DNA of 64,000 nt from Trichodelitschia bisporula (Eukaryota): assembly GCA_010356995.1 (NCBI GenBank), contig ML996700.1, forward strand, positions 496,001 to 560,000, in the 5' to 3' direction. Numbering within the stretch: the stretch's first letter is position 1; every line of letters starts with the position of its first letter. A program made the position numbers and the translations under genes. Shown in pieces: positions 23,345-63,150 of the stretch. The notes under the pieces are model-generated. The model ran no database searches. It was not told the origin of the DNA and saw only the letters and a program-made list of their open reading frames with translations.

Positions 23345-23442
23345 ATATGATGTCTTGTCATCCGCTCGCTCCACCAGCGCTCTCTCATCTTACCTCGAAA
23401 CATATGCTCGTCGATTGCAAACGAATGCTCCTTCCACCATCA
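23345..23442 (-). repeat. Dispersed AGGAGCA double-box element, copy H (no adjacent CT tract)
   Basis: Minus strand: TGATG...AGGAGCA (23432), ACGAGCATAT (23411; +21), CATCAT (23352; +59 from box 2). Confidence 0.6.
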
Positions 23443-24303
23443 CTGTTTCTCTCTAAGATAGTATTCTGAATCAACTACTAGAACTAATCAAGGGTTTCAC
23501 ACCGCACTGCTGAACGTCGCCAACAGAATACTCCGGGCGCTGAATACACCTGTCTGCTCCTAGCTCACTCACGCATATTCATATAAACCACAGTAAGTCT
23601 CAGCTGTCCCCGATGGCCGGTATATGTTAACGAGTCTCATACGAAGCCAATCGATCCAAGAGTTGCTTAGACCTTGGTTGATCGTTCATGTCGATGGAAA
23701 AAGTCGCTTCGGGAGTACATGTGTGAAATGTCGTCACAGCATTCATCGGAGGCTATTCTCTTTGTATGATGACCTTTCCAAGGGCGGACTAAAAGAGAAG
23801 GAACTCGTTCTTAAACGTAAGCACAGTGAATGACAACAGCATTGCCAGTGAAATGTCGAAGGACACGCAAAAAAGTCGTGATCGCCATTCTTAAAGACTT
23901 TTGCGGACCCGGCGGCGACAACCTTTTCACGCCTCCTCTATGCACGCCTTGGATCCGGATCATCCTTTTACCGGTATATTGTGGTTCGTGCCTCCGTGAA
24001 TGCTCCACAGACCTCAAACTCGCGGAGCCTGGCAAACGACTTCCATCAATCTCAATAGCACTTCTCCAGCCCTGATCTTGCAATATCATTTCCGAGCCCC
24101 ATTCTCATCCTCTGGCTCTTAACCACCTCATTTTTCTACCATTCCCTGCCTACGGAGAATCATCGCATCTGGAAGACATTGTTCATCACCTTTGTCAGTT
24201 TCATTTAGCGTTTGCAAGGATTATTCCCAGCCACTGAGGTAGCGCCGCGCCTTGCGACGCTGGGCAGAGCATTTCGCGGAACCAGTTTGACGATCCTCGC
24301 ACG

Positions 24304-27300
24304 ATGAGCAACCCACAGTCTTCAGGTCCTAAACTGGAAGACTCCATTCGAAGGATGCTACTGAACTCGCCAAATCCAACGAATGTGCTTCAACCGAACC
24401 GGTCTTCGGCTGCTCACCCGGCTACGGATACTCGTACTGGGTCTCACGCGCCTGTCAATCGCGACTCCCCGGCGCATATGAATATTCAACAGTACGACCA
24501 TAACGGTATGGATGACGCCTACGGTCGCGGTGCGGCCAGCACGCGTCAACGCAACAACAGCCAGTCTCAACAGCATCCGCAGAATCACCCTCTTCCTACT
24601 CGCCCTGTCAGCCGTGGTCGCGGCCAGCCGCGCAAGCATGTGAACCATCACGTTGCTCCAAATTCTCCATATGCTCCCCACGGACCTCGCATGCCTGCTC
24701 GCACCCAGCCTGCTCTACTGCAGGCAGAGCAGTTTTCTGCCCAATGCCAATACATGGACGATGCCGCGAGTCACGTTATCCCAACCATCATGCCCTCCAG
24801 AGAGGAACTCATGGCCAAGGATACCTTCCGTGTGCGACTTGAGGCTATCTGTCGCGAGGTCGTGCCCATAGCATTGCCTGAGCTTCCGCCATTTTCTCTC
24901 CAGGCGTATGGCAGTTTCGCTTCTGGATTCGCGGTTCGGGGGTCCGACCTCGACTTGACTGTAGTGTGGGATTACCCGCCGATTCCGGGCTTTGAGGAGG
25001 CAGTCGCGAGTGTTCCTCGCATTCTGGAGGCGGCGCTGTTGCAGGCTGGGCTTGGAGCTCGTGTGCTTGACAGAACTCGAGTGCCAATTATCAAGGTTTG
25101 CGAGCATCCTACTCCTGAGCTGTACCACAATCTGGTCATGGAGCGTCAAAAATGGGACACTATTGCCAAGGAGGAAGAAGGGGAAACTCTCCGCGAGCGT
25201 CTCGCGCCCCAGAGTGCAGCCTTCGGAACCCTCCAGCATCTGAAGGAAATGTCTGCCGTTGAACGCACCCTGCAGGACGACCTCCGGGGGTATCTGAATC
25301 GCTTCATGGACTCGGCTCGTGAAGCGATGAAGGACACCGATGAGGATCAGTATTTTGTGTGCAAACTCTTGCTCCAAGGTCTTCCGGAGTCACTTGCCAT
25401 CGAAGCTATGAAGGCGTGCGGAATCACCGAATTACGCGAGACATACTTGCTGGGGCCTTGCGCGAACTGGGTTCGCGAAACCGTAAAGCGCATGACTGAT
25501 CCGGCCCCCAAACCGTGGCTGCGCGAGAAGGCCATGGGGGATCTTGACTTCCCGAAGACAGGTGTTGGTATTCAATGCGACATCAACTTCACGAATTCTC
25601 TTGCAATTCATAACACACGCCTGCTGCGCTGTTACTCGCTCTGTGATGTGCGCGTTCGTCCGATGGTACTGTTCGTCAAGGAGTGGGCCCGTCGCCGGAA
25701 GATCAATAGCGCGTACAGCGGGACGTTGTCATCATACGGATATGTGCTCATGGTACTTCACTACCTCATTCATGTAGCGAAGCCGCCTGTGCTTCCGAAT
25801 CTACTGCACATGTCCGGGGGAGCGGTTGTTACAGAGCAAGGATATAAGTTCTCCTTCTACGACGATGAGGATGCTATTCGGCGCGCTGCGGCTGCAGGAA
25901 ACATCACGACGAACACGATGCCTCTTGGGGTATTACTTCGCAACTTCTTCCATTATTATGGAGAGCTCTCTGCAATGGGAGCTGAGGACAGGGGGTTCAA
26001 TTGGACACGCTGGGTTTTGTCGCTGCGCTCGCCACATGGGCTTCTCTGGAAGGAAGAGAAGGGGTGGACAGCTGCTAAAAATGCAGTCATGACGGATGTA
26101 AGTTCTCCGATGCTCTTACTTTCATTTCTAACAGCTGCACAGAAAGTTGTGCGCCAGCGCTACTTGTTGGCCATTGAGGATCCGTTCGAGACTGACCATA
26201 ACGTTGCGCGTACAGTTACCCACAACGGTATCGTTGCGATTCGCGACGAGTTCCGCCGTGCGCTGAGCATCATGGCCGATCTCGCGAACAAGGAAGCTGT
26301 GATTCCTGACCTGTTCGAACCACTCAATCCACCTGAGTCAAGCCCGACCACTGCCGTGGACGCGAAGGGCTCAGAGACCAACGGCAACAGCCAGCCGGCC
26401 TCCCCGGCCTTGAGCAACGTATCGGTCTCGCGTGGTATAGATCATGTTGAGTCGCCTCTTCGGAAGGTCACGCCAACTGGTGATGGTTCGAGTCATTTGA
26501 CGACGACGGATGCCTCAGACGCCCCGCACCCGGATGCACAAATGGCCGATGTGGTCCTGCGGCCCTCTTGGGTAAAGGGGGGGTTCTCTTGGATAGCGGA
26601 GAATAAGACATCGGCTGCTGGAGCTGTGACTCAGAAGCAGACATTGATTGGTGAAGCAACGCCTCGTCAGCCGGTACCAGAGGCACAAGAGGCTATGAAG
26701 ACCGCCGAGGCGTCGAAGTATCAACCTATCCCAGCCGGTGTGGCTCACTCTGTGTTGGAACCCTCGACTGCCAAGAAAATGCAAGAAATCGCTCCGGCAG
26801 GGCTTCTTCCAGGGCTTGGTGCTCATCTTACGCCTGCTCGATCGGACCCTTCAAAGGAAGTTCCCAGTTTCGCTTCAGCCTTTGCTTCAGCCATCGCTCA
26901 GGGTCAAGCCGGTAAGCCTACGGATCGACTGGCTGCTTCTGTGCCGAAGCCCGAACAAACCATGGAATCCGATCTCCAGCGTAGTGTGCCAGATGCCCCG
27001 GCCATGCCTATGCAGCCGAAGAAGCAACAGCCCTACCAGCCTCCTTGGAAGCGCAGTGGGGACAAGCCAGCACCTCAGGTGGCTGAGCCTAGGCAACCGA
27101 CATGGGATGAAATCAAAGCGGCTCTAGCCGACCCTGTCGAGACATCCACGACTGTTCCCAACACTTTGCGAGGAAGGGCCACGGCAGCAGCACCCGCCAA
27201 ATCTGGCAAGCCCACGGCGAGCGGGCAAGCGCAGACCACGCCTGTGCACTGGCCAAAATCTTCTGAAAGCCAAGACTCTCGCGCTGGTGTATATAAAAGC

Positions 27301-28179
27301 ACTGAAGGCGTTCCATTCTCTGATTCCCACACTCAACACACATCCACAGGTGGCGATCGCAAATCTTCTGCTGCGTCAACAACTCCACATACCGATCCCG
27401 CTGGGCACGCCCCAACGAGGCACTCACCAAAGCCGTGCCTTGTCAAGTCATCCCTCACTCAAGTGACACACACCTCCGCTCCGCAGCCACCCACCACTGC
27501 AGCATTCCGGGCTCCATACCACCTTACTCCCCACCACAATTCTGCCAACATGGCTACTCCGAAAATCATCGACGATCTCGAAGCCTTCTTCCCCATGGGG
27601 CCTGCGGAAGAGACTCCAGGCAACCCTGAAGCAGCGGAGAAGCAGAACTTTATCAAGCCTGAACCGACCAAGGATGATTCTACCGAAATTGAGCCATCGA
27701 CGGACGGTCTCAAAGATCACACGGTCCCCTTCATCTCGCTCGCCTTGAGCAACCCGCGCGCCTTCCGCCAGCCGGCACAAATCCAGAAGCTCCTGAACGA
27801 CGACCTGCGCATCGAACGCGAGGCCAAGCTTCAGCGTGGCCTGAAGAACCTCAAGGAGATGGGGTTCGACGTGACGCGCGAGCAGCTGGAAAAGGTCCTG
27901 AATGACGCTGAGGGGGAGATCGTCGACCCCGTCCCTGCTCCCAAGAATCGTGAGCGTCGTGGTTATCATGGCTGGCGCGGTCGTGGCGGCCGTGGCCGTG
28001 GCGCTCATGACGCTCGTGGTGGCCATCAGCAGGGCGAGTCTCGCGACGGTGGCTATCAAACTCGCGGTACTGAGGGCGGCAAGCCTCGCGGTGGTGGCCC
28101 TCCTCGAGGTCCTCGTGGCGGCGGCTTTGATCGTTGCACTGGTTCCGGCCCTGTCGCTGGTTCCGGTCCTGCCGCCTAG
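24304..28179 (+). CDS. Cid1/Cid13-family terminal nucleotidyltransferase (likely TUTase, CutA/CutB-like) with long C-terminal extension; in-frame intron 26098-26142
   Basis: Pol-beta NTase motif YGSFASGFAVRGSDLDL, third Asp in QCDINF, GTLSSYGYVLMVLHYL, and PAP-associated loop IEDPFETDHNVARTV carrying the UTP-selecting His. Confidence 0.9.
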   Translation: MSNPQSSGPKLEDSIRRMLLNSPNPTNVLQPNRSSAAHPATDTRTGSHAPVNRDSPAHMNIQQYDHNGMDDAYGRGAASTRQRNNSQSQQHPQNHPLPTRPVSRGRGQPRKHVNHHVAPNSPYAPHGPRMPARTQPALLQAEQFSAQCQYMDDAASHVIPTIMPSREELMAKDTFRVRLEAICREVVPIALPELPPFSLQAYGSFASGFAVRGSDLDLTVVWDYPPIPGFEEAVASVPRILEAALLQAGLGARVLDRTRVPIIKVCEHPTPELYHNLVMERQKWDTIAKEEEGETLRERLAPQSAAFGTLQHLKEMSAVERTLQDDLRGYLNRFMDSAREAMKDTDEDQYFVCKLLLQGLPESLAIEAMKACGITELRETYLLGPCANWVRETVKRMTDPAPKPWLREKAMGDLDFPKTGVGIQCDINFTNSLAIHNTRLLRCYSLCDVRVRPMVLFVKEWARRRKINSAYSGTLSSYGYVLMVLHYLIHVAKPPVLPNLLHMSGGAVVTEQGYKFSFYDDEDAIRRAAAAGNITTNTMPLGVLLRNFFHYYGELSAMGAEDRGFNWTRWVLSLRSPHGLLWKEEKGWTAAKNAVMTDVSSPMLLLSFLTAAQKVVRQRYLLAIEDPFETDHNVARTVTHNGIVAIRDEFRRALSIMADLANKEAVIPDLFEPLNPPESSPTTAVDAKGSETNGNSQPASPALSNVSVSRGIDHVESPLRKVTPTGDGSSHLTTTDASDAPHPDAQMADVVLRPSWVKGGFSWIAENKTSAAGAVTQKQTLIGEATPRQPVPEAQEAMKTAEASKYQPIPAGVAHSVLEPSTAKKMQEIAPAGLLPGLGAHLTPARSDPSKEVPSFASAFASAIAQGQAGKPTDRLAASVPKPEQTMESDLQRSVPDAPAMPMQPKKQQPYQPPWKRSGDKPAPQVAEPRQPTWDEIKAALADPVETSTTVPNTLRGRATAAAPAKSGKPTASGQAQTTPVHWPKSSESQDSRAGVYKSTEGVPFSDSHTQHTSTGGDRKSSAASTTPHTDPAGHAPTRHSPKPCLVKSSLTQVTHTSAPQPPTTAAFRAPYHLTPHHNSANMATPKIIDDLEAFFPMGPAEETPGNPEAAEKQNFIKPEPTKDDSTEIEPSTDGLKDHTVPFISLALSNPRAFRQPAQIQKLLNDDLRIEREAKLQRGLKNLKEMGFDVTREQLEKVLNDAEGEIVDPVPAPKNRERRGYHGWRGRGGRGRGAHDARGGHQQGESRDGGYQTRGTEGGKPRGGGPPRGPRGGGFDRCTGSGPVAGSGPAA

Positions 28180-28569: not shown

Positions 28570-29063
28570 TTACACATACGCCACACACTCAATCTCCACA
28601 TCGGTCCCCATAGGCAGCTCCTTAACAGCGACGCAGGTGCGCGCAGGAAAAGGAGTAGGCATCACACTCTTGTACGCCTCGTTCATGGCGGCGAAGTTGG
28701 CCATGGTGGTTAGGTAAATGTTGACTTTGATGATTTTTTCAAGGCTGCTCCCACCTGCCTCCAGGATGGCAGAGAGGTTCTTGATGGCTTGGATGGTGCG
28801 CGCGCCAATGGAGGAGGTCACTAAGGCATTGGTGGAGGGGTCGAGGCCGATGTTGCCGGAGCAGTAGATTAGGTTGTTGTGCACGATCTGGAAGGGGGTG
28901 TTAGGCATTTGTCCTCTGATACACGAGGGAGAGGTGTCGGTTCTGTTCACTCGGTTCAAATGGGGGAAGAGAGGCTTACTGCCTGGCTGAAGGGGAATTT
29001 GGTTTGGTCTAAGACCGGGGCATTGCGTGTTGATATTACGGTTTTGGAGGAGGGAGGGGCCAT
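28570..29063 (-). CDS. RidA/YjgF/Mmf1-family enamine deaminase, 133 aa (exons 28980-29063, 28570-28887)
   Basis: Spliced sequence MAPPSSKTVISTRNAPVLDQTKFPFSQAIVHNNLIYCSGNIG...MNEAY...PARTCVAVKELPMGTDVEIEC; 92-nt GTAAGC...CTAAC...CAG intron. Confidence 0.92.
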
Positions 29064-29458
29064 TGCTTTTTTGTTTCGTGACTTCAGTACACACAGAACT
29101 CGAAATGCAATTCATATAAAGGAGATGGAGTGACAATGGCGGTGATGTCGTTATCTGTCGTGAAGTAGATACAGAGCGGTCAGCTTATGGTGTCGTGATT
29201 TTGCTTTTGCGGTGGCTGCGGGACCCCGCACTGCAGGGTCGCCAGGACAAGCTTCCATAAGCCTTCCCCAAGTCGTGGCGTTGACTTCAGTTGCTCTAAT
29301 GCCGCTTTTTTAACTTTATATCTATGTCATCGCTAAATGCGACATTGCTCTCTCCACCGGTCGCACCTCCGAACCGCACCCTCCTTCTCCACTGCAATGT
29401 CCTTACCCGCACTTCGAGCCTTCTACACAGGAAGGCACAGTCCTCAACCCGGGCAACC

Positions 29459-29630
29459 TGATATAGCGACAGGGAAGAAGTATCTATATATTCGGAAGGG
29501 GCATCTTAACCAGGAAGTGACCGGTGAGATAATGGAAGGAACCCGGGAGGACATGCACCACGAGTACTACGCATATCCGGTCATCAACAGCGCCACTACC
29601 CCGCTCTCCCTTCCATTCTTCATCTTTCAC
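29459..29630 (+). repeat. Dispersed AGGAGCA double-box element, copy G (divergent)
   Basis: TGATAT (29459), AGAAGTA (29476), AGGGGCAT (29497; +21), purine-rich GGAAGGA..GGGAGGA, CACCAC (29556; +59), CT tract ~29598-29630. Confidence 0.55.
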
Positions 29631-31651
29631 CAATGCTATCAATCCGCACCCATCGCCTTCGCACGTGTTCGAGTCCACGCTCGCCTCACACCGCCCGTCA
29701 TGTGCTTCCCCATACTCCCGGATCCGATCCGGTCAACACTCACGCGTTCCACCCGCCGCTGACGTGCCACACCCGCGGCCCACGCGCCCGGCGCAAGATG
29801 CCGATGCCGACGCGCTGTGAATCAACGTAACAAGCAGCGGGACGTACATCGCGCGCAGATGCGCAAGGGGAAGCCCGACACCACGCCCAAAAATACCCGC
29901 AAATCGCAATCCCAAGCTCATATGCTGCCGTCTTGGCCTTGGGCGACAACTTCCCCATCTGTACCCGAAAAACGGATGCCCATATTACGCCCCCCCCCCG
30001 CCCCCCCCTCACATTCACACTCCCTCGAGGCTTCGTCGAATCTTGCAAGCGAAACCGCCTCGGGAGGGAGGGAGCGGACTCGCCGCGCGGCGAACACCTG
30101 GTCGAGCGCGGATCGGCAGGCTAGCGCCCTGGCGGGGAAGGCGGGGGAGGCGCATCGGGAGCGTGGGCGGCGGCGCGTGCTGCTTCGGGAAGGTGCCGTA
30201 ACGCGGCGGCGCACGTGCGCGGGTGCAGGGCACCCGGGGGAGGGCACCGGGGGGAGGGGGGATGGGGAGTGAGGCCCGAGGGTACGTTCGGAAGGGGGAA
30301 CGGGGAAAGGACGTTTGCCGTACTCGCCATGTGTATTCCGCTTGAGCGGACGTGCCGAACTGTACGGGCACGGTCCTCGTGGATATCTAGGTGGGGTTGT
30401 TTCTTTGGTGGGGTTACTTGCCTCCGGCCAATGCGTGGTGGGGGGCGGGCCAAGCCGCGGAGATTATTGGGGTGGGGTCTGGGGTCTGGCTTTTTGTTTT
30501 GCGGGCAGCTGAGTGCAATGTGGAGAATTTGGGGAAGATTTTTCTGGGGGGCTTGATTCCGTTACGGGGTGGTTTTCCTTGCTTCGTCTATGGTGTGGGC
30601 TGGTTGGGCGGGGAGTGCTTCGTGCTTCTTTCCCGGCTTCCATGGCCGGGGGGGGATATGCACGCGTCTGCCGTGCCCGGGCAGGGAGTATTGAGACTGG
30701 TCTGGTCGCTCGCATGGAACTACGGTAGTATACCCTAGGGGCATAGAGCCCGTTTGTCTATTGATATTGCAGCGCCGGGGGGGTGCGTTGCAGCCCGGCC
30801 CTAGTCTGCATATGCAAGCTAGCGGGCCCGATCGAATGAGATGCCCGAGCCGCTAGCTTGCAAGATTTCATTCAACGGCGCACTTGCTCCCATCCTTGCC
30901 GCTCAGGGAGCTGTCCTTCGGGAACTGCTTTGAGCAGGAATGGGCGCGTGGAACACGGGACGAGTTGTACGAGCGCGGTCAGCCTTAGACGTGGATGAAT
31001 GGGGCTGCGTGTTGTGCCCGTTGCCCGGTTGTTACACTGCATCGTGGATGAGGGAAGGTCGATGTCACCTCCTCCCTCGACTCCCTGCGCACACCCCCTC
31101 CAGCCCCTCATTCCACACTGCCTCCCTCATAGCCCTGTTGTCCAACTCGGGTCCAATTGTACGGCATTTTTTGCAGCGCGGGGCAATGGATGTATATGGC
31201 TGGTGTTTCTTGTCGTGCGAGTACCATGTTGGGTGGATGGCGGACGACTCTACGTACTACCTCTTGGTTGCTTGGTCGTCGTACGTGTAAGGTGGTTGTA
31301 TCCTAGCCTCGCAGCTGGTCTCGGATTTGGTTTCTCTTCTTGGGTTGGTTTGGTTTGGGGCGAGAGGCGAGGAGAATGAGGGTGCGCTTGATGGAGTTGT
31401 GATGAGACGTGGGCGTAGGAAATTCGGAGGAGCCGAAAGGGTTCAACTTACCTGCTTGGCATGGAACTGGTCTCGCCAAGGGTGAAGAATTGGATGATCA
31501 AATGGTGTGGGGAGTGTGGAGAGTGTGGAGAGACGGGTCTACCAAGAAGAAGAGAAGCAGCGGCTTCCTTCGGTGGACAACCTGCCCTCTTCAACCTCCA
31601 CCGTCTTTAATCTGGCGCACGTGCCCTGTGCGTTCCCTCTTCCTCTACCAT

Positions 31652-31678
31652 CCCCCCCCCCCCCCCCCCCCCCCCCCC
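31652..31678 (+). repeat. Poly(C)27 tract in the sugar-transporter upstream region
   Basis: 27 consecutive C residues. Confidence 0.95.
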
Positions 31679-31921
31679 TCCACCACTCCCTCGACCTTCT
31701 TTTTAAGAGATTAATCGTCTGGCATCTCCCCTCCACAAACAATTCCACCCCCTCCCCCCTGTGGTCAAAATTCCCTTTGATCGCGGCCCCCGTTCCTCCG
31801 GTATACAACCCCAATCACCTTATGTGCTCACTTTCCGTCGCCCTCGGTCGCTAACCTCACAACCTCAACCACAGTTCAACCACAGCAGACGCGCCCGGCG
31901 AAGCGTGCCAGCAAACTCAAG

Positions 31922-33762
31922 ATGTTCCAAATCAGCAACGTTTACGTGATCTGCGCCTTTGCCGCCATTGGTGAGTTGTCGCCCGCGCATATCCCTCTGC
32001 GTATCGCATCGCCGTTCTCTACTAACACGGTCCAGGCGGTGGGCTGTTCGGCTTCGACATCTCGTCGATGAGCGGCGTCCTCGGTACCAATGGGTACAAG
32101 AACTATTTCCACAACCCGGTGTCGTCGGCCCAGGGCGGTATCACGGCGTCCATGCCAGCGGGCTCGTTGGTCGGGGCGCTGGCATCGTCCTTCATCGCCG
32201 ATCGCTTCTCGCGCCGCACGGCCATCCAGGTTGCCGCGCTCATCTTCATGCTCGGCGCTGCGTAAGTTTTCCCTGTTGCGCACCGTGCGCGCGCTAATGG
32301 GTCGCAGTCTTCAAGCATCTGCGCAGAACAGGGCCCACCTGTGTATCGGTCGTGTCGTCGCCGGTGTCGCTGTCGGCATCGCGTCGGCCATCGTCCCCGT
32401 CTACCAGTCTGAGATTGCGCCGAAGGAGATCCGCGGTCGCGTCGTCTCGTTGCAGCAGTGGGCCATCACTTGGGGCATTCTGATCCAGTTCTACATCCAG
32501 TATGGCGCCTCCAACGTCGACGGTGGCCCGAAGGCGCCGAATCAGGGGTGAGTTTGTGCTGTCCCTGTAGGAGGGTTCTGCTGACTTGTCTAGTCAATCG
32601 TCGTTCCGCATTCCATGGGGCATCCAGATGGTTCCTGCCTTCATCCTGTTCTGCGGCATGTTCTTCCTTCCCAAGTCGCCGCGCTGGTTGGCCGGCAAGG
32701 ATCGCTGGGAGGAGGCGTAAGTCTTTTGTCGTTTGTCTTGTGGGCATCGCTAACTGTCGCAGTCTGAGGGTCTTGGCCAACCTTCACGGCAAGGGCGACG
32801 TGAACAACCCCAAGGTGCTCGCCGAGTACAAGGAAATCCAGGACGCGATCAACTTCGAGCGCACCCAGGCCGCTAGCTCGTTTAAGGCGCTGACGGAGCC
32901 TCGTATCCTCAAGCGTGTTCTCCTGGGCATGAGCATCCAGATGTGGAGCCAGCTGTGTGGCATGAACATCATGATGTACTACATCGTGTACATCATGGAG
33001 GCCGCCAACATCGGCAATCCCCTCCTGACCGCTAGCATCCAGTACATCATCAACGTCGCCCTGACGCTCCCGGCCATCCTGTATCTCGACAAGTGGGGCC
33101 GTCGTCCGTCGATGCTGCTGGGTTCTTTTGGCATGATGACTTGGCTGTTCATCTCGGGCTCGCTCCAGGGCGCCTACGGTCATCCCAACCCAAGAACTGA
33201 CCCCAATCTCAACGACATTAGCTGGGTGCTCGACTCGAGCCACAAGAAGGTCGGGCAGGCAGTCGTCGCCTGCAGCTACCTGTTCGTGGCGACATTCGCG
33301 ACCACCTGGGGCCCGTCCTCCTGGTAAGCTTCACACCATGACGCCCTGTGCAAATCACGCTAACTAACCGCCAGGACGTACCCGGCGGAGATCTTCCCTG
33401 CGAAGGTGCGCGCCAAGGCCGTCTCGCTGTCGACCGCATCCAACTGGGCGTGGAACACAGCGCTGGCCTTTGCCGTGCCGCCACTCCTGTGGAGCATCAA
33501 CTGGAAGATGTACATGATCTTCGCGACGTTCAATGCCCTTGCGCTGATCCACGTGTTCCTCGCCGCGCCTGAGACCAAGGGCAAGACGCTGGAGGAAATG
33601 GACGAGGTGTTTGACACTGGCATCCCGGCGTGGAAGACGCGGCCTTCGGGTAGCCGGCTGGATAAGTTGCGGGCGGATATTGAGAAGGGGGATCTTGCTG
33701 TTGCGGTGCCGGGGGTTAATCGGCATAGTGTTGAGGGCGAGTCGGTGCATGTTAAGTCGTAG
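31922..33762 (+). CDS. Sugar porter family (MFS) high-affinity hexose transporter, HGT1-like; 5 introns (first 31971-32035)
   Basis: MFQISNVYVICAFAAIG/GGLFGFDISSMS, ADRFSRR, VPVYQSEIAPKEIRGR, PKSPRWL, QLCGMNIMMYY, DKWGRRP and PETKGKTLEEMD motifs; canonical GT...CTAAC/CTGAC...AG introns. Confidence 0.93.
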
Positions 33763-34849
33763 GCTGTTACGTGCTAGGGGTTGATACGGGGTTTGAAAGG
33801 GATGATGTCGAGCTGCTTGGCTTCTACCATGTAGGTTGGGCGTCGTTCGTTTTGAGACCGGCTCAACTCTCCTGCGGAGTTCGGTTTCTGCTCGTGTTTT
33901 CGATATCCATCGGACGAGGCTTGAGGCGAGCTTTTATGTGCGGAAGCTGAGCGATAGATAATGGTGGTAATGTCTCTAACTTGTGTATGGGCGTGCGTGA
34001 GGTTGTGCTGGAGGCGTTCCTGGCAAGGCGTTCCTGTCCCATGCGTGACTACGGTGGATGTTATGACGGGGCTGTGACTCTTGAAGCAGGAGTGCTATGG
34101 GTCAGGGCTGAATGAGGATATACCCGTGACCTTTTCGTAGAAGCCGGAGGTGCGCATCCCGAGTCCAGAGCGGTGATGTCGACGTGGCACGCGTCCCAAA
34201 GCGATCCCCTTCATCCCCAAACACACAGCGTGCTTCGCCATTCCCCCCTTCCTCATTCAGTCCACATAACCCGTGGCCAGGAAGAGAAAGTGCGGGCGCT
34301 TATCCGCGCGCTTCCGCTCCTCGCTTCGCTTCTGAGGGGGCACGACATGTTGCCATTTGTCCTTCCGCTTGTCTGGCCTGTTTGCTGGGTGGGCGAGAGC
34401 GGCTGTGCGGGTTAGGTTGGATGTGCGTTGGGAGGGGCCTGATCTAGTTCTAGATGGGATGGATTAAGGAGGGGAGGGGAGTCGAGCGTGGCGGTGCAGG
34501 GGGGCGGGGGGCGTGGTGCAGGGGGCTAGGGCGGGATGGGGCGGTGCTGGGGACCGGGTGCCGGGTAGTTGGGTGACGACGGGTTAGGGTGAGGAGGGGG
34601 TTGCTGCGCTGGTTTCGCTGGAGGGGGATGATATCGGGACTGGATACCTCCGTACAAGACTTCTATGGGCTTATTTTTCTACGATTTACTGTTATGGGCT
34701 CAGGAGCATTCATATTTGACGACGCGTAGTCTGGGGCGACAGCGTTTCACACTTCTAGTTCTACTACCTCCGTACTCCGTACTCATTCCAGCGCAACCGG
34801 CCGGACGCATAAAGGGAAGATGAGCTTGACATGTGCAATGGTTCCGGTA

Positions 34850-35010
34850 TAAAGTAAAGAGTGATAAAAGAACATAGAGAGGAAAGAGAGTAGAAAATAC
34901 GCTCTGTAACAGGTACATGATGTGGCGATATCCTCCTCAGCCCCTTCCCATACATCGCGAAGCACATTAACCTCGTTCCTTCCCAAGAGTGATATTGCTC
35001 CTTCAAATGG
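34850..35010 (-). repeat. Dispersed AGGAGCA double-box element, copy F
   Basis: Minus strand GAAGGAGCAATATCACTCTTGGGAAGGAACGAGGTTAATGTG closely resembles copy B (AAAGGAGCATATCACTCTTAGGGAGGAACATGATGTAATGTG). Boxes at 35002 and 34980, CATCAT at 34922, then a CT tract. Confidence 0.8.
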
Positions 35011-35303
35011 TAATTATGCTGCCTTGGAGGCAGTCATCACTTGCCTTAATGTCTTGATACCTGGTCGCATTTTGGTATGTGTTCACCATCACATCGCCCT
35101 GAACCGCACGAAAGGTGCAATCAATTATTCGTCCGACTGCAATAAATCGAGTAGCTCAAATCACATTAAAATCCGGTCTCACATCAATCATCAAAAGCGC
35201 GCAAAGGGTATACCCGTCCCCGCCTCATAAGCACCCGTCCCAAACGCCATCCCCCCCCACCTCCACCAACCCTCCGACCCACCCAACGCCCTCACCCCCC
35301 AGC

Positions 35304-39584: not shown

Positions 39585-40147
39585 GGTGGATGGATGGGTT
39601 GAGGGTTACCGGGGACATCCATCGTTAGACGTGGACTTGTTGAGGGATTGCGAGACACATTCATCTTTAGAGATGGACGGCGATTGGCGGTGAAAACATG
39701 GAGCGGTTGGATGTGTGAGTAGTGGCAAGGGTTTGAGGTGTTCGGAGTCAAAAGTAATGCCCGGCTTTCAGTGTGCGTCATGGCACCTTGAGATTTAATG
39801 GTAGAAAATCAGCAGTTGCGAATCAGACTTCCAATCCTACGACAACGGGATACAAAATCACCAAAAAGCATGTCCAGAGCATATCTGCCACCATACAGAT
39901 ACCTTGATATCTTTACTGCGAAGTACTCTGAGATGCATCGCACCAAGTCGTAACATAAAGTCGAGTTCCGCGCGCCATCTCCAAGCTCCTCACAGACCTC
40001 CCCCGCCCAGCCAATCAAACAGCTCCGCCCCGCCGCACCTAGCGTTTCATCCCCCAACGTGCAAGCTGTCTACAACGTCCCATCCCATCACCAACAACCA
40101 CATCTTCATCCCAACCTCATGCCCTCTCCCCAACCCCAATCCGCACA

Positions 40148-41868: not shown

Positions 41869-42140
41869 GGCGGGTGTAGTTAGATGGAGTGTTTGTATAG
41901 TTGCTTTAGCGGGCATGAGGCGGGTGTGTAGGTCTATGGAAGTACGAAGTACGAAGTACGCAAGTTGCATCACCACTGCCGGCATCCCCTTCTCGTCCTC
42001 ACCACCTCAACTCCAACTCCGAACCCCCATCCCTCAGACCTCAATCCCTCAACCCACGAAGCTCGCCGCCCAACCTGATACCTCCACCTCCTGCTGTGGA
42101 TGCACAAAACATCAAGGCATCAAGGCAGGTACCACTCCTG

Positions 42141-46100: not shown

Positions 46101-46926
46101 CATCGCTGCAACCTGCATCGCTGCAACCTGCACTGCACTCTGCACACGACGCCGTTTAGCTGGTGCTGACAACCCCCTCAGTCGTGCCTCTCTTTCGCTC
46201 TTTCGCTCCTTCGCGCCTAGAGACAGAACCCCCCCCCCCTCCCCCTCTCCCCACGCCTAAACGGCTCTACCACCCCCCCCCCCCCCCACGCGTCGAGTCT
46301 CACCACCCAGCGGACCATCACTCACTTCCTAAACCTTAACAACCTCTCTTTCGTTAATCACTTTTGGCACGCTCCTTTTCCGTGCGAAAGCAACGCCGGC
46401 CGTCGTCAACTTCTACCTTCGTTTCCTGGCCATCAGTCGAATTCACCCGCTCACTTACGCATCTTGTCGAGTGCTCTTTTGGCTACTTTCACGACACTCA
46501 TTGCGCTGTGACTTGGGACTGTGTCTCGAGCGATTCGCCGTATTCGATATCGTCAACTTGCTGCTCTGAAGGTCCACCGATTGCTGTTCAAGCCAACAGC
46601 GTACGCTCATTTTCAGAACTTACCCGACCTGTCCGGTGGTTGTGTGTATGGAGCTTGCATTCTCCGACGATCAAAATCTACCGACAGACCACGAGACTTC
46701 CACCTCCGTCCCATTTCTTGCCTACATTCAGCGGCACGCCGTTTAATTTTCACAACAATCAGATTGTCGCGTTTGTCTCGGTAAGTTCCCGTTCCCCCAC
46801 ACCATCACATCATGCACAGGACCCTCATCCCTTAACTCCCCCACACCATTCCATACCTTCGTCTGACGTCCTCCCCTTTGACCACATGCTACGAATGAGG
46901 GAATGTCTAACATCTACGAAGCTGCC

Positions 46927-51720: not shown

Positions 51721-54041
51721 CTAACTCCCAACCGCCCTCCCCACCCCCTGCACCAAGCGCTGAAACTCCCTCAACAACTCCTCCACCTCGCCCACCCTAA
51801 GCTCTTTCGCATCCCGACACTCAACGAACTTCTTCGCCGGCGGGCTCATCCTTTTCAATTCCTCAATAGCCGCCACAGCCCTCGCATCGGCGGGAGTACG
51901 ATGCACTTCCTTACACCCCTCCTTCCCCTCCTCCTTCCCCTCCTCCTTCCCCTCCTCCTTCCCGCCCTTCCCCTCCAACGCTACACCCACCGGCCCAACC
52001 GGACTCACACCCGGCCTCACCAGCGCCGGGGAAGGCGAAACAGCCGGCCTCACCAGGCTCGGCGAGGGCGAAACGGGAGCAGAGGGGGGAACAGGCGAGC
52101 TCCCGCGGCCGAAGAAGCTTATTTTCGAGAATTGGGAGAGCGGGTTTAGACTGCTGCCGAGGGTGCGCATGCTTTCGACTGCGCTGGCGGGCGAGGCGAG
52201 GGGGGGTGTCTCGGTGGTGCGGCGGGTGCTGGTTCTGGTGTGGGTGGAAGTGGCTGAGGTGGTGCTGTCGGCGCTGCGGTCCCGTATGGCGCGACGCGGC
52301 GGAGCTGGTTCTAACCTGCCCTCCGCGGCTGGAGTTGGGGGTTCGGGTTCGGTAGTGGGCTCAGCGGAGGATGAAGACTGCGCGTCGTCGTCCTGCGCCC
52401 TTGGGCTTACCAGCGCCGCCGCGTCGGCGAGTGTGCGGGGCCGGGCCTGCTCCCTTAACCGGCCGAAGAGAAAGCTGAAACTAGCGTCTAGGGTGGAATT
52501 GATGGTATCGAAGGCCTGGTCCGCGGAGTCCAGGACCGCGCCCCGCAGGGAGTCGCCGGCGGCTTCCAGGCGGTTGGTTTGTTTTGTGAGGAGGGAGGAG
52601 AGACGGCGTTGGGATTTGGTGGTTGTGGGGGAGGGGGGTTTGGCTGTTACGTCCAGGGTGGAGGGAGAGGTACTGCCGGGGACGGAGGCGGGGAGTATGC
52701 CGAGTTGCATTGGGACGGTGGGCGTGACGGGCCGGCTTGGATGGGGTTTACCTGGCCCGGCAAGCGATTCGTCGGCGCGCAGCGAGGCCAGGTCCACGGT
52801 TTCGAGGAAGGAGATTGCGGCTTCGAGATTCACGAGGCAGTAGGCTGCTTCGCCATCCACCTTCCCGGCGGCGCGGAAACGGGTTATGAAGTTTAGGTTT
52901 GAGATTACGTTGATTGTGTCTGGAGGGGAGGTTATGAGGGCGTAGATGAGGGTGGGGAGGATTTCGTCGGCGGAGGAGGTGGAGGGGAAGAGTTGGGAGA
53001 GGGTTTCGACGATGCTCTTGTGCGCGGCGGTGAGGTGGTGCAGCTTGCCCAGGGGGTGGTGCTCGGCGTCCATTGCCTGGATGGAGTCCCGCGCGCCTTG
53101 GAGCATCAGTCGGATGCGGTCTTGTTCTTCGACTGTTTTGCGCCGTATGTCGTCTGTGATGTCCTCGGCGCCGACGAGCAGCTCCTTCAGGCCGATGCCG
53201 ATGAGCGAGAGGGCTGCGATGCGTGAGCGTAGCTTTTGGTCCTTCTCCTCGTCTTCTGAGCTGCGGTGGCGCCACACGCGGTCGTACACTTTTTCGCACA
53301 CCGTTCGCTCCACTGCTTCTTCGAGCACTGTCTTCTTGACTTCTAGTGCTTTCCGCGCCTTCTTGCGGTCTGATATCTCCGACGCTGTAAGCATTTGCTG
53401 CTCCACGCCGCCATTGTTCTTCTGGCTGTCCTTGGCCCCGCGGGACGACCCTTTCAGTGATGCAGTGGGAGACTTTTCGCGCGATATCCGCGACGAGAGG
53501 GTTGCGATGTGGGCCGCGATATGGGAGTCCGCGCGCGTGTAAAAGTCCTGGAAGAGGTCGGATAGGGCGTCGATGGACAGTGGCGAGGGGTGCACTTTCG
53601 CAGAGAGCGACTCTAGGAACCTGCCCTCATGTCAGTAAATAACCCCGCTGCATACTGTAGCGCGCGTCGAATGCAACTCGCGAGTCATGCTCGACCCTAC
53701 CTCTCGGTAAAACTGCGAATCTCAATAGGCAGCTCCTCGAGCGACTCGGGTACCTTCACGTCCGGCACGGGAGGCATGTTCTCAGCGCTGGGTCCGCGCT
53801 CGGCTGGCTCGACGATGGCCGGTTTGGCGCTGGGGTCATGCTCTGTGATGGCGATGATGGAAGGCGGGAGGAAGGTTAGGCCTGCTTTGCTGGGTTGTAG
53901 AGTGGTGGCTCGGGTGCGCGGTGTGTCTGATGGACTGCGGAGTGAAGGTTCGAGCCGGCTGAATGATTTGGAGTTTTGCAGAGCTGGACGTGGGGAGTCT
54001 GAGGAGACGGACCAGGTGGCAGCGGTGCGGATGGCCTGCAT
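51721..54041 (-). CDS. VPS9-domain Rab5 GEF (Muk1-like), ~746 aa; intron 53621-53700
   Basis: VPS9 motifs SSADEILPTLIYALI, NLNFITRFR and GEAAYCLVNLEAAISFLE; 80-nt GTAGGG...CTGAC...CAG intron. Confidence 0.9.
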
Positions 54042-54645
54042 GATGCGTGGCTTTTGATGGCTTGCTTCTTTCTCCCCGGTGGGCGGGACGGCGGGCGGTA
54101 CGGTTCGCGGGTAAGTGTCAACGGAACATGGCGGGAAGACGTGATGTGTAAGACTGGTGATGAGATGGAGTGATTGATAAGAGAGAGTAAGGAGAAGGAA
54201 GAGGAGAAGAGAGAGAGTGAGGATGACCAACGTCAGGTATTTTTCCCTTATGAATAATGGTGAGAATTAAGAAGGATTTCTCTCTATCTCCGTCTTGATC
54301 TCTCTCTCTCTCTCTGTGTGTTGCCCTTCAACACTGCACCCAGTTCCCCTCGCCATTAACCTCTCGCACGCCTGTCGCTACTCGTATGCAAACCCCAGGC
54401 AAGGGTTGAGCCCACGCCAAGGTGTCGATGCCGTCACCCTCACAGGTCGCATGAGCCTCCCCATCCACTCATCGCCGCCTGCGCCTCTCAACTCATCCTC
54501 AACCCAAAACAACAACCCGTACAACTCAAACCCGTTTCCATCCCACCACCCATACGCTTCCTACAAACAACCACACGCCTCATATCTTGTCATGTTTTAG
54601 CCCTTCAACTGCTGCACTCCTTTCTATCAACGCACGGCTCCCGCG

Positions 54646-56712
54646 ATGCTCACGTCCCTCACCCTCTCTCTCCTCCTCGCCGTCACCGCCATCGCCCCCG
54701 CCAGCGCAGCGACTCGTGAGGGTCCGCAACGACGCGCTCCTCACCACCCAGACCCCGCGCCCTTTCCTCTGCCCGGCCATCAAGATGTCCTGGCGCCTCC
54801 GGAACATGATGAGCCTCTAGAGTTTGTATGTTCTTTGTTCCTCCCTCTGCTATACCCACCATGCTCATAGCAGGCAGACGCTCCGTCACATCCTCCACCA
54901 CGGCAGCCACAAGTACCCCGATCTCTTTCGCCAGCAAAATATACCCCCAGATGCGGCACTATACGCAACGAGAGATGGCTCCACTCGCCGGGAGCCCGTG
55001 CCGAGGTACCGCGCCCGATCACAGAATCTCCGCATCCAGCGGATGGTGGATCGCAGTTTTGAGACAATAGACTCGTTGCTGGATGCTGGGAGGTTGATGG
55101 GGGCTCCGGTGGTGCTGGATGCCTCGGCGTGGACAACGGACGACGTTCCGGGGCCGAACATCACCGACAAGGAGACAGTCCTAAGCATGGCCAGAATAGC
55201 GGCGGATGCCTATGTTGCGGACAACAACGGTGCAGAGTGGTTCGATGTGAGTACAGAAATGGAGGCTTGTTGGGAATATTGCTGATGGGGATAGGTTGGC
55301 AACGGACTCAATTACACCGAAGACTTTGGTTGGGAAAATGACGGGCTGCGGGGACATATCTTTGCCGACACGACGAACCGGACGATCGTGATCGGTATCA
55401 AAGGAACATGTATGTTCTGTGCAGAATGAGAGAAGTACGTAACTGACAAGGGGCAGCACCGGCGGTGTTTGACGGCTCCGAGACGACAACAAACGACAAG
55501 ATCAACGATAACCTCTTCTTCAGCTGCTGCTGCGGTCAAGGCGGGCAATACAGTTGGAAGCAGGTGTGCGAGTGCCAAACATCGGCGTACAGATGCAACT
55601 CCACCTGCGTCGTCGAGGCACTCCGAAATAAGAACCGCTACTACTACGCCGGGCAAGAAATCTACCGCAACGTCTCGATACTCTACCCGGACGCCGACAT
55701 CTGGCTGGCCGGGCACTCGCTGGGCGGCGCAACAAGCAGCCTAGTCGCCCTAACCTACGGCATCCCCGTCGTGACCTTTGAAGCGCCAGGCGAAGCCATG
55801 GCAGCTAAGCGTCTCGGCCTCCCCACTCCCCCGGGGTACCATCTCGGAGCGCATCAGCAACGCGCCACAACCGGCGGATACCACTTCGGACATACAGCCG
55901 ACCCGATTTTTACCGGCACCTGCAACACCTTCACATCCGTGTGCACAATCGCCGGCTACGCCATGCAAAGCCGCTGCCACACAGGCTACACATGCACCTA
56001 CGACACCATCGGCGACTGGGGCTGGCGCTCGGGCGTCGGCTACCACCGCATCTCCGGCGTCATCCGCGACGTTCTCGAAGTCTACGAGCAGCCTGCTGCG
56101 TGCGCACCCCTCGCAAACTGCACCGACTGCTTCAACTGGGAGTACTATGAGAGCCACGACTCACCGCCTTCGAGCAGTAGTAGCTCTTCCAGCGCATTTA
56201 CGTCGACACGGACCTCGACGTGCAAGACGCCGGGTTGGTTTGGGTGCTTAGATGAGAGTACTACGACGACGAGCACGACGAGCACGAGTACGAGTACGGA
56301 GGTTACTACGACTACGACGACGACGACGACGACGACGACGTGTAAGACGCCGGGGTGGTTTGGGTGTAAGGATCCGACGACTACTACTACGACCACGGCG
56401 ACGTCGAGCACGGAAGCACCGTCAACCTCAATTCTCATCACCAGCGCACCACCGCTGCCGACTACGACTTCGACTCACTCCAGCGGTACTTCGTCAACCA
56501 CGTGCCACTCGCCGGGCTGGTGGGGATGTAAGGACCCAACCACAAGCACTAGTTCTAGTTCTGCGTCGTGGAAAACAAGAACGATCTCCACGGTCTTCCC
56601 GACGGAGACGTGTTCCGAAAGGAAATGGTTCGGGTTGATTTGCGCTGGTCCGGCTGCTACGTCGACGGCGGTGACGCGGGCGGGGAGGATGGGCGCGAAG
56701 ACGGATTTGTGA
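54646..56712 (+). CDS. ATG15: Autophagy lipase Atg15 with Thr-rich C-terminal tail; multi-exon (first intron 54826-54877)
   Basis: N-terminal hydrophobic anchor, [56 protein letters not shown] and the lipase motif WLAGHSLGG. Confidence 0.93.
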
Positions 56713-56974
56713 TTGGGTTTAAGGGAACTGGGATTGATGGGCATGCATCGGCGTCTTTTTGGGGGGGTTTGGGTTGGGTTGGGTTTTTTTTTTTGCGGGT
56801 TTGATGCTGGGAAGGGAAATTGTGATGAGTTGGTGTTGGGATGTGGATGGATGGCTTGCTGGCTGGTGCTGGCCGTATATACTTAGCTTATTGACATGAC
56901 TGGATGTGTGTGGGTGGTTGGATGTGATTGTGTACGTGAGTACTACCCGATGTCGTACGCAGCGCGTCTACATA

Positions 56975-57130
56975 TGATGTAGACATGAAAGGAGCATATC
57001 ACTCTTAGGGAGGAACATGATGTAATGTGGTGATGATAGAAGGAAGGAAGGAGGGGAGGAGGGTATCTGGCATCATATATAAGTCTCAAGAGACTCTGAC
57101 TCTCTTCCTCTCCTTGTCTTTACTTCAATC
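56975..57130 (+). repeat. Dispersed AGGAGCA double-box element, copy B
   Basis: TGATGT (56975), AGGAGCA (56990), AGGAACATGATGTAATG (57011; +21), GAAGG-rich segment, CATCAT (57071), CTCAAGAGA, CT tract. Confidence 0.85.
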
Positions 57131-57371
57131 TTTGATTTTCTACAGTTACCTAAGCACGTAAACAAGACCTTACTCCCATCACCATGTATCACAGTATACG
57201 ACGACGCATTCCGGTTGGCAACAGCCATCCAAGCGTTGAGAAAATGAGGCAGGTATCAAAGACCACGGGTAGAAGTTTCCCTTTGGTCTTTGGCAAGCAC
57301 GATGGCAACGTCGACGGCTGCGATGCTTCAAGACCTCCCATGCCCCAATCCTCACCCTCCACCTTCAACAT

Positions 57372-59014: not shown

Positions 59015-59587
59015 GTTGTTGGAGTACCTACATCCGTATAGATGCGGTTCGAGTCCTATGGCCCTATTCGAGTCCTAGATGTTGGTTGCAACAGAGGCCG
59101 CATGTCAACGGTGCGTGATTGGGTGCGCTGAGATGGCGGGATCAGTGATACCTGGGCGAGATCACATCGTCGGAGAGCTGGAATGGACATGGCGAGGTTC
59201 CTTTCGATCCTCCCGCAACTAACTGCGTACTTTTACCTGTGATCGGTTGGCTTGAGTTCGTGAAGGGCAGTGATGCTTGGGGTGTGAGGCCTGTCGGCGT
59301 AAGGTTAGGGCTGACAGTTGATATTATGGCGAAGCCTTTTCGATCGACCCCGCAGCCAACCTCTTAGCTGCATTTGTGATTGGGTAGGCTGAGCTCGCGG
59401 GAGTGGTGATACTTATGTAAGTGAAATGCCTGTGATGGATGGGCTGGACTTGGATATGGCGATGTGTTCTTGCTCTGAGGGGTTACCTGAAGGGACAAGG
59501 GCAAGCTTGAAAAGTCGTGCCGCCTCCTCTCGAGATTTTAGCAGAGGAGTCTCGGCGGGCGTGTGCATGACTTCTTTTTGTGAGTGC

Positions 59588-59705
59588 TCTGGAAGGATCA
59601 TATACCATTCTCGGGTGAAGGTGCTTGCCGAAGGAAGAAGCATTGGAAGGACATCGTGTATACATTCTGGAGACCCTCTCGACTCCCTTCTTTTCTTCGT
59701 CAATC
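59588..59705 (+). repeat. Dispersed AGGAGCA element, copy D (box 2 onward only)
   Basis: GGAAGGATCATAT (box at 59594), GAAGGAAGAAG, CATCGT (59652; +58), CTGGAGACCCT, CT tract. Confidence 0.65.
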
Positions 59706-60952
59706 ACAGTCTTCACTTTACACCGACGGGAGGCCAGAGATCGTGTACTGCGGTATGCCCTGCGAGGCTGACACGCTCGGCGCATCCTCACCGTAGGGTA
59801 CCCGTAATTGGCCATGTCGGCCAGCGCAGATCAGGCATGCAGTCCCATCTCAAGTCGAAGCGAAGCAGTGCAACCCAAGCTGCCACCACGAACATAAGCG
59901 ACCAACGCCGGCCCCCTCAGCAGCAGCCTAACCGGACGATATGCCCCGACCACATGTGCGCCACGCAAGCACTCGTATTCTCCTCGGGATTCCAAACGCC
60001 TCCCCCGCCGCCGAACTTCAACTCGCCGTCAGCCTTATTGCACTTCGCATCTCAGTCGCCGCGAAGGCCACGAGGTGAGTTAGCCTTAAATCTCGGCTCC
60101 GGAGCTCCCTCCCCCCTCGCCCCCACGGCGCCGGGCCTCGCACCGCCTTTGGCCCTAGCCGCCAATGCCGCCTCGGCAGGCAACCGACCGGGCGCGCGGT
60201 GCGATTGGCGCGCGGAGATGGAGTCGAATGGGGGAGGGAAAGCGGGAGGGGCGGCGCGGTGTGACGGAGGGGGTCCCGAGGGGCGGAGGCGGAGTCGCCG
60301 AGAGAGAGGAGGGGTGGGAGCTTACGGGTCTTGATAGTTGAGTTCGTTGTTCGGGTCCTTTGTTTGATGGCCGATGCCTCGCTGCCCGACCTGCGCTCGG
60401 CTGTGGAAGCGGGAGAAACCCGTCCGTTAACCCCTTTGGCTGGCTGGGTGCAGGCGGTTGACGGCGTGCGTGCGCCACCAACCGGCGAGACGACATCATG
60501 GCGTCCTGCGGCGCTCAGCATCGCTAACTACGGTACCCTGTCGCATCTCACTTTGTTGCTAACGTATTAGCATCTAGCCAATTCCTTACCGGTACACCTC
60601 TCCTTCCAACACACCCCCTCCTTGTTCCAACAACCCCCGCATCGCTTCTCCCCGCACGCTGGAGTCCTAATTGGCAACCTCCGCCCTCCCCCTCCTGTCA
60701 ATCACAGGCTCGTCGCCGATCGAACATACCTCGGAGCCGGCGCCTTCGTCAAATACGGGTCAGGCCGACCATCCTACTGTCTGACCTATCCATGTCAATT
60801 GCGCGCTCCTTTACGTCGTCACTACGAGTAGTGCTAGGGCAGCATAATATAAAGGCCGTCCGTCTCGGCACCCAACATCCCGCTAGCATCCAACACCTCC
60901 GCACATCACCACCCCGCCACCTGGTCGTTAATCGAACCTCCCACCTTCCGCA

Positions 60953-62526: not shown

Positions 62527-62986
62527 GTGGGTAACTGGGCATGTACACTACTGTACTCTGATGAGCAGATGATGGGTTCTGGTAGACGGGTTTTGGGATG
62601 GGAATCGGAGCATGGGGTTTGGACTTTGGACACTGTGGTGAGCCTGAACTGTACGGATGTAGAGTATCCCGCTCCGAAAAACAACGCGTTGGTTGGCGTT
62701 TCAGACTCGCCCTCCTGCATCTGCCGTGCAACGGGCCGCCCGTTGCCCTGATTAGATGAGCCGCAAGGCGAGGTTCTGACGTTATCGATAGGGTAGGGCG
62801 GGGTAGGGCGATCACAGCGATTGCTGCACGTGGAGGGCTTCCCGAAGCTCCCGAAATAAGGTCAATACTGACGATAGGGCAGAGAAGTTCATCGTCATCA
62901 TGAACTTCCATCCTCATCTTCACGATGCTACTTCCACGCTCACATGTTCAACATCTCCCATCCGCATCGCACCACCAGCACACCCC

Positions 62987-63150
62987 TGATGTGGGTATAG
63001 AAGGAGCACTGTCATGTCAGGAAGGAGCATATGATGTAATGCTCGTATGATCGAAGGAAGGAGTAAAGGAAGATACTTGGCATCGTGAATTTAAACCTCG
63101 AGAGCCTCTTCCTCTCTTCGTCTCTTCGTCTCTTCGTCTTCCCCTTCAAT
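62987..63150 (+). repeat. Dispersed AGGAGCA double-box element, copy C
   Basis: TGATGT (62987), AGGAGCA (63002), AGGAGCATATGATGTAATG (63023; +21), CATCGT (63081), CTCGAGAGCCT, CT tract. Confidence 0.85.

Follow-up and report, generated by a model that had tools for sequence, protein, structure and literature searches.

A family of intergenic sequences at the locus

The stretch analysed here, a 64,000-nt piece of the Trichodelitschia bisporula genome (assembly GCA_010356995.1, contig ML996700.1, forward-strand positions 496,001 to 560,000; hereafter the window, in whose own numbering all coordinates are given), has a G+C content of about 57% and carries a recurrent element among its housekeeping genes. 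The original prediction described this element as at least eight copies of two AGGAGCA-like boxes (box1 and box2) at a nearly fixed distance, followed by a CATCRT motif and a pyrimidine (CT) tract, and proposed that it reflects selection on a promoter class rather than the decay of a transposon. Our analysis yielded seven full copies, designated A to G, and two likely fragments, all within 41 kb. The seven copies share common descent, are located exclusively between genes, are consistently oriented, and hold neither coding sequence nor a common RNA fold nor terminal inverted repeats.

In the order of the window, copy G (29439 to 29709, plus strand) is the most diverged full-length member and is matched by a seven-copy nhmmer profile with an E value of 3e-38. 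Copy F (34774 to 35052) is the only full copy on the minus strand, and the 1.1 kb ahead of it contain no ATG-initiated open reading frame (ORF) of at least 70 amino acids. Copy E (42117 to 42394, plus strand) has GCGCAAA in place of an aligned CATCRT, and is followed by copy A (42935 to 43186, plus strand), after which about 3.7 kb are devoid of coding signal. Copy D (59528 to 59804, plus strand) is short of one box unit of about 21-22 nt, and copy C (62958 to 63227, plus strand), the only copy with two exact AGGAGCA boxes, has a downstream region that ends at the window edge.

Copy B (56954 to 57213, plus strand) is the best preserved and the sole copy ahead of a credible gene. Its 5' boxes (56975 to 57017) comprise the imperfect palindrome TGATGT-AG-ACATGA at 56975-56988, AGGAGCA at 56990-56996 and AGGAACA at 57011-57017, while its core (57040 to 57083) consists of a purine run, CATCAT at 57071-57076 and the only canonical TATA box of the family, TATATAAG, at 57076-57083. 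The 3' part (57096 to 57183) includes the CT tract, TTCAATCT, GCACGT at 57154-57159 and CTCCCATCACC at 57173-57183, directly followed by an ATG at 57184.

The two likely fragments look like partial, older copies. H (23345 to 23436, minus strand) contains the boxes and CATCAT but no CT tract; along about 93 nt it runs collinear with B, only 2 of 300 shuffles attained its summed Smith-Waterman score against the seven copies, and it gave no nhmmer match with the seven-copy profile. At most, H may be a degraded 5' half of the unit. A possible degraded 3' half at 54139 to 54315 (plus strand) displays a CT tract, CCCTTCAAC and CGCACGCCTGTCGC, and lies about 330-500 nt upstream of a lipase ATG (54646). 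A five-copy profile assigned it an E value of 0.006 and none of 300 shuffles reached its summed score, while the seven-copy profile did not report it on the plus strand. Just 3' of H, at about 23290-23320 (minus strand), a GGTTCGAGCCC stretch resembles the T-arm or B box of a transfer RNA (tRNA), although no tRNA was found there by ARAGORN or Rfam.

Reality and membership of the family

Copies A, B and C match one another in blastn with 72-75% identity over 101-151 nt (E values 9e-10 to 6e-12; A versus C, 75% over 101 nt, 2e-11), and F matches B with 83% identity over 42 nt. On the window, an nhmmer profile of A, B and C retrieved F (9e-9), D (1.5e-8), E (4e-4) and G (1e-3), with H at 3.4 only. 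The real scores of D, F, E and G were 13-30 bits, compared with a best score of 7.8 bits in 100 control windows shuffled in 1-kb blocks with dinucleotides preserved, none of which gave a match of at least 8 bits. Profiles of the longer unit, each built from the other six copies, recovered all seven, with E values of 5e-16 for A, 5e-17 for B, 9e-21 for C, 4e-11 for D, 3e-16 for E, 5e-11 for F and 4e-6 (20.5 bits) for G. Nothing further appeared in the whole window at an E value below 0.2 with the seven-copy profile. In addition, non-repetitive blocks such as ACATGATGTAATG and TTGCACRTGT are common to the copies. Copies A to G constitute one homologous family, which accounts for seven of the eight copies originally listed, while the membership of H could not be confirmed.

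On its own, the heptamer AGGAGCA shows no enrichment. It occurs 16 times in the window against 10.4 +/- 3.1 expected, a number reached by 5 of 100 shuffles, and exact box1 is present in four of the seven copies and exact box2 in one. A three-part rule following the original prediction was also applied: with box1 allowing at most one mismatch, box2 at most two mismatches at a distance of 20-22 nt, and CATCRT 55-60 nt further on, five places in the window matched (A, B, C, F and H, for all of which the predicted box coordinates are correct), in comparison to 0.02 matches per shuffled window and at least one match in 2 of 100 shuffles. Two family-specific patterns, one fitting A, B and C and the other E and F, returned no matches each when scanned in metagenomes, and the papers found to name Trichodelitschia bisporula do not, by their titles and abstract openings, deal with promoters or repeats.

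Anatomy of the unit

Pairwise local alignments between copies cover 110-320 nt at 68-78% identity and extend from about -175 to +180 relative to CATCRT. The unit measures about 270-340 bp rather than about 140 bp, with homology running about 100 nt beyond the CT tract; on extending the alignment, the additional 3' blocks CAGTTTACA, GCACGTGT and GCTCCCATCA were found. As judged from its surroundings, the unit is discrete, albeit with fuzzy termini, because none of 13 flank segments has a partner at an E value of 0.01 or better.

The 5' part starts with the imperfect palindrome TGATGT-NN-ACATGA, which is clear in A and B, followed by box1 and, about 21 nt on, box2, the latter overlapping ACATGATGTAATG in A, B and C. 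TGATGT was read at the predicted 15-17 nt ahead of box1 in these same three copies. Between box2 and CATCRT sits the purine run GGAAGGAG...GGAGG, the best-conserved block of the unit. The 3' part comprises CATCRT, an AT-richer spot, the CT tract, TCAATCT or CAGTTTACA, GCACGTGT and GCTCCCATCA. Purine run and AT-richer spot are present in all seven copies, as is the CT tract, whose pyrimidine fraction ranges from 0.69 to 0.86 (95th percentile of the window, 0.69), so that the promoter-like layout and the pyrimidine tract noted in every copy except H (pyrimidine fraction 0.41) both hold. The AT fraction of the spot after CATCRT is 0.53-0.73 against a window mean of 0.43, the 95th percentile (0.67) being attained in B and C only. 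A canonical TATA box (TATAWAWR) without mismatch is found in B only, C and D deviating from it by two positions and the others by three or four; exact CACGTG is present in two of the seven copies.

The claim of a nearly constant spacing is correct for A, B, C, F and G, where box1 and box2 are separated by 20-22 nt and box2 and CATC by 55-60 nt. The spacing is not invariant, however, as the alignments show D to be short of about 21-22 nt, corresponding to one box unit, and E to carry insertions. By our reading of the alignments, box1 of F and B is the better counterpart of the single boxes in D and E.

Common descent and inherited spacing

The seven copies form a star-like tree whose terminal branches measure 0.3-0.7 changes per site and in which only the group of A, B and C is supported (94/97). 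Neighbouring copies (E and A, B and D) are not mutually closest, and motif decay differs between copies. The original prediction took fixed spacing together with diverged spacers as a sign of selection as opposed to transposon decay. This argument does not carry over to homologous sequences: as judged from the alignments and the tree, the spacing is constant because the copies align over 110-320 nt and descend from one ancestral sequence, and by itself it is silent on selection. Conserved columns are clustered along the alignment, with a lag-1 autocorrelation of 0.41 that none of 2000 uniform-rate simulations reached; the uneven quality of the alignment inflates this measure. There are 17 invariant columns, which is within the ordinary range of the simulations (12.2 +/- 3.4, with 209 of 2000 reaching 17).

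Several origins of the similarity were considered and rejected. Paralogous downstream genes, or the conserved head of a gene family, do not agree with flanks that have no partners, nor with the three-frame translations of eight downstream regions, which gave a single weak cross-match (47 amino acids, E value 2.8e-4). Within the window, pairs of long terminal repeats (LTRs; E and A, B and D, D and C) and simple tandem duplication were ruled out because neighbouring copies are not closest relatives; besides, D and C enclose a normal P450 gene. Coding on the opposite strand, suggested by short ORFs beginning with MFL or MLL that run through the reversed boxes of A, B and C, was dismissed as well: the start is shifted in C, upstream indels break the frame, and D to G have no such ORF. 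A small conserved ORF in the 3' blocks did not hold either: C and E have an ATG in common there, but the frame in E stops after five codons, and F and D have no ATG.

Genomic context

The gene map was drawn from Pfam matches and a codon-usage scan. Around the copies it comprises a poly(A) polymerase-like gene (24238-28179, plus strand), an L-PSP gene (about 28573-28908, minus strand), a sugar transporter (about 31922-33759, plus strand), a Myb-like gene (35455-37584, minus strand), glucosidase II beta (40043-41865, plus strand), a 1361-amino acid ORF (46882-50964, plus strand), a VPS9 gene (51721-53631, minus strand), whose product shares 95% identity with a Trichodelitschia bisporula protein and 56-59% with the next relatives, a class-3 lipase (54646-56709, plus strand), the annotated 476-amino acid gene P0001 (57584-59011, plus strand) and the P450 gene (60953-62523, plus strand).

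All copies reside within 23-63 kb of the window and none in 1-23 kb. Each of the seven is oriented away from the gene on its own 5' side, and five of them begin shortly past a same-strand stop codon, namely B (242 nt, lipase), E (249 nt, glucosidase II beta), F (403 nt, Myb-like), C (432 nt, P450) and D (514 nt, P0001). Copy A follows copy E. Copy G, oriented away from the divergent L-PSP gene, is 530 nt upstream of the ATG of that gene, and the sugar transporter starts about 2.2 kb downstream of G. A promoter acting in the reverse orientation was rejected, as there is a gene on that side only for G. Each copy is followed by 0.5-3.7 kb, which leaves room for an unannotated transcript.

The DNA behind most copies carries little sign of coding. 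The codon-usage scan found no coding segment of at least 14 bits in 42.0-46.9 kb, which holds E and A, nor after D, F and C. Codon scores are at or below zero for the ORFs after A, D and E and for the first ORF after C, and weakly positive and ambiguous for the ORF of G and the second of C. The simple ORFs of A, B, D, E and G were looked up in the protein collection, where only P0001, behind B, is present; the others, including the 151-amino acid ORF of A, are absent. The nearly 5 kb of 42000-46880 contain neither a coding signal of at least 14 bits on either strand nor a Pfam match, an unusually long interval for such a gene-dense window.

The ATG of P0001 is located 370 nt downstream of B, and its codon usage is gene-like (0.124 bits per codon). 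An exhaustive search returned 11 distant homologues at E values up to 1e-3, the best at 5.7e-9, while a word-indexed search found only P0001 itself. An alignment of eight sequences revealed 25 invariant columns and the motifs G.YE..W, LERVN..L..W, F..HRDS and RDS..AK.R...R.H. Judging by these homologues, P0001 is a member of a conserved family not covered by any Pfam model, and B is the one copy in seven with a credible gene in front. The P450 gene 1.15 kb downstream of D possesses a TATAAA of its own (-105), and D is therefore probably not its promoter.

For the most part, the native promoters of the window have no TATA box and are rich in C or CT. In 3 of the 12 native genes examined, a CATCA-type motif is found no more than 100 nt ahead of the ATG (P450 at -49, glucosidase II beta at -62, and the 1361-amino acid ORF at -100/-95). 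The element, as far as its sequence tells, therefore matches the local promoter style.

Weighing the possible explanations

That the pattern is an artefact of chance or low complexity is hardly conceivable. GA and CT tracts occur commonly between fungal genes and AGGAGCA alone is not enriched, but leave-one-out E values of 4e-6 to 9e-21, shuffles that never reached 8 bits and shared non-repetitive blocks such as ACATGATGTAATG and TTGCACRTGT are incompatible with this view; chance is already refuted for A to G and could account only for H and 54139-54315. The alternative offered by the original prediction, a structured RNA formed by pairing of purine run and CT tract, is very improbable, also in the shape of a hairpin such as a small-RNA precursor. 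The purine run can be folded onto the CT tract in all seven copies, and the hairpins of B and G are more stable than shuffles (z scores -2.55 and -2.26), two non-significant Rfam matches resembling microRNA precursors (E values 3.9 and 3.8, in a search up to 5) falling on hairpins of the family. On the other hand, purine and pyrimidine tracts pair in any register, the remaining five hairpins are no better than shuffles (0.05, -1.16, -1.36, -0.44 and -0.90), the consensus fold of the alignment amounts to only -1.52 kcal/mol with a compensatory change in 2 of its 11 pairs, and Rfam gave no match at the gathering score. We also consider it improbable, if less extremely so, that the element is part of the 3' flank of the gene preceding it and no promoter of the DNA that follows, be it a boundary element, an element close to the terminator or a repeat with a preference for insertion just past gene ends. 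The distances of 242-514 nt past the stop codons of E, B, D, C and F, with A following E, and the non-coding nature of most downstream DNA would suit such a role; yet G lies upstream of a divergent gene and not past a gene end, a real gene stands behind B, and the order of AT-rich spot, CT tract and CATCA is that of a fungal promoter instead of a poly(A) region.

Two explanations remain to be weighed. The proposal of a selected, multi-site core-promoter or cis-regulatory class, in which the same factors bind all copies, maintain the helical spacing and drive co-regulated (e.g. stage-specific), lineage-specific transcripts, is possible but doubtful in our view. In its favour are the clustered conserved columns, the spacing held in A, B, C, F and G despite long branches, the uniform orientation away from the 5'-side gene, the confinement of the copies to a span of 34-41 kb with none in the first 23 kb, the 0.5-3.7 kb behind each copy that could house an unannotated transcript, the imperfect palindrome TGATGT-NN-ACATGA in A and B, which might be a site for a dimeric factor, and the fact that copies so diverged have survived at near full length. 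Against this, the clustering test is biased by alignment quality; the spacing is inherited and hence no independent evidence of selection; D is one box unit short and E carries insertions, most copies have degraded boxes and a degraded TATA box, and P450, glucosidase II beta, VPS9 and the poly(A) polymerase-like gene do not use the element as a proximal promoter. Moreover, coding signal is missing from the ORFs behind A, D and E and from the first one behind C and is ambiguous for that of G and the second of C, and among the simple ORFs looked up only P0001 is found in the protein collection. The reading that we favour, and hold with even confidence, is that the copies represent an interspersed repeat, old and lineage-specific, which is either solo-LTR-like or unclassified and is built like a promoter cassette. 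This classification draws on structural hallmarks, Pfam domains and Rfam, all within the 64-kb window. That the family arose through mobility or duplication, whether or not it is active at present, is by itself a roughly balanced proposition, and a transposon origin is at least as likely as the promoter class originally put forward.

A series of observations weighs against the interspersed-repeat reading. As originally stated, neither terminal inverted repeats nor target-site duplications are visible: no inverted repeat is common to the seven copies, three of which have none of at least 10 nt, and no duplication is consistent, C matching at 5/5 positions (ACCCC, with one choice of border), A at 4/5, B at 3/5 and the rest at none. 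The flanks of A, B and C are alike at the ACCCC site, where by our reading the borders are uncertain and the bases probably lie within the unit. TG...CA ends are not consistent among copies either; TGATGT stands near the 5' side of A, B and C and CCCATCA near the 3' side of B and C, neither is clearly displayed by D to G, and some pairwise homology extends past these points. No reverse transcriptase, integrase, gag or transposase domain was found in the 137 window ORFs scanned, and a tRNA-like head, the hallmark of a short interspersed nuclear element (SINE), is absent from the copies. The clustering of the copies at 23-63 kb is easier to reconcile with local spread or a regional role than with a family scattered at random over the genome, seven diverged copies of near full length with similar spacing hint at constraint, and a canonical TATA box as well as a credible gene directly downstream are restricted to one copy in seven. 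Among defined classes of small elements, a miniature inverted-repeat transposable element (MITE) was discarded for want of shared terminal inverted repeats, and a SINE, which would have a head derived from tRNA, 5S or 7SL RNA with internal Pol III boxes, because ARAGORN detected no tRNA genes in the window and Rfam no significant match at the copies.

Proposed scenario and significance

Under the interspersed-repeat reading, the unit would have spread from the single ancestral sequence of all copies by transposition or a similar copy mechanism. In its anatomy the unit corresponds to a portable RNA polymerase II promoter cassette made up of the upstream boxes, the purine run, CATCRT, an AT-rich or TATA-like spot and the CT tract, with a putative initiator-like TCAAT/CATCA motif and a short leader at its 3' end. 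Such an appearance is that of a solo LTR or of another mobile or duplicated segment with a promoter on it. Promoter activity of the copies is plausible: they may have acted, or may still act, as promoters directed away from the upstream gene and into mostly non-coding or orphan DNA, and copy B might serve the real gene P0001. We further speculate, although we think this rather unlikely as a whole, that the unit is a self-contained mobile promoter which was copied into gaps directly behind gene ends in a housekeeping region, whose length and spacing are under selection, which seeds lineage-specific non-coding or orphan transcription, and which was captured as a functioning promoter by at least one conserved gene, that after B.

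Should the copies be only relics of an unclassified repeat, they would still provide a useful annotation for a little-studied Dothideomycete lineage, together with a caution that fixed spacing among homologous copies does not amount to evidence of selection. If they are active, they would show, in a clean natural setting, one and the same promoter sequence at work in unrelated transcription units, would bear on the origin of new transcripts and orphan genes in compact fungal genomes, and would offer a compact candidate promoter part of about 0.3 kb.

Other features of the window

Outside the family, the ORF at 1679-3160 matches the bZIP_1 domain and contains at 2581-2638 (plus strand) a match to Rfam RF04247, the non-canonical Hac1/Xbp1 intron, with 39.8 bits against a gathering score of 41 (E value 3.7e-4). 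This ORF is probably the Hac1/HacA gene of the unfolded-protein response, including the intron that is removed by unconventional splicing. Of all self-matches in the window, the strongest, which is unrelated to the A to G family, is a direct repeat of about 140 nt at 13863-14000 and 14506-14649 (78% identity, 640 nt apart, E value 3e-26). Another direct repeat of about 93 nt with 74% identity (56200-56292 and 56320-56412) is located in the 3' part of the lipase ORF, where one overlapping frame encodes an arginine-rich low-complexity sequence. The promoter region of the sugar transporter contains a run of about 30 C at 31640-31680.

Comparison with known systems

The core promoters of filamentous ascomycetes such as Aspergillus and Neurospora combine a TATA box or AT-rich spot with a CT-rich tract and a transcription start near a CATCA-type motif. 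The sequence layout of the unit presents the TATA/AT-rich element followed by the CT tract and retains the same order of features, and CATCA motifs and C/CT-rich leaders also occur at native genes of the window. However, unrelated promoters are not normally alignable over 270 bp, whereas seven are here, and most of the present copies have no recognisable gene behind them.

Solo LTRs of fungi, such as the delta and sigma elements of yeast Ty and those of fission-yeast Tf, are discrete, non-coding, intergenic sequences of 0.25-0.35 kb that contain promoter signals. The family described here resembles them in forming a discrete intergenic unit with upstream sites, an AT-rich or TATA spot and a start region, and in its star-like tree with degraded fragments beside full copies. 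It differs from them by the lack of consistent TG...CA termini and of target duplications of 4-6 bp, by the absence of a gag-pol remnant from the window, by neighbours that do not form pairs, and by a strong orientation bias and local clustering.

The mimp elements, a group of MITEs, are reported to lie in the promoters of effector genes of Fusarium oxysporum (PMC3599309). A MITE is defined by terminal inverted repeats, none of which are shared by the present copies, and the latter are situated among housekeeping genes and not on an accessory chromosome; what the two have in common is that a short repeat without coding capacity is found again and again ahead of lineage-specific genes and is characteristic of one genomic neighbourhood. 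Among the systems compared, the family is most like the solo LTRs.

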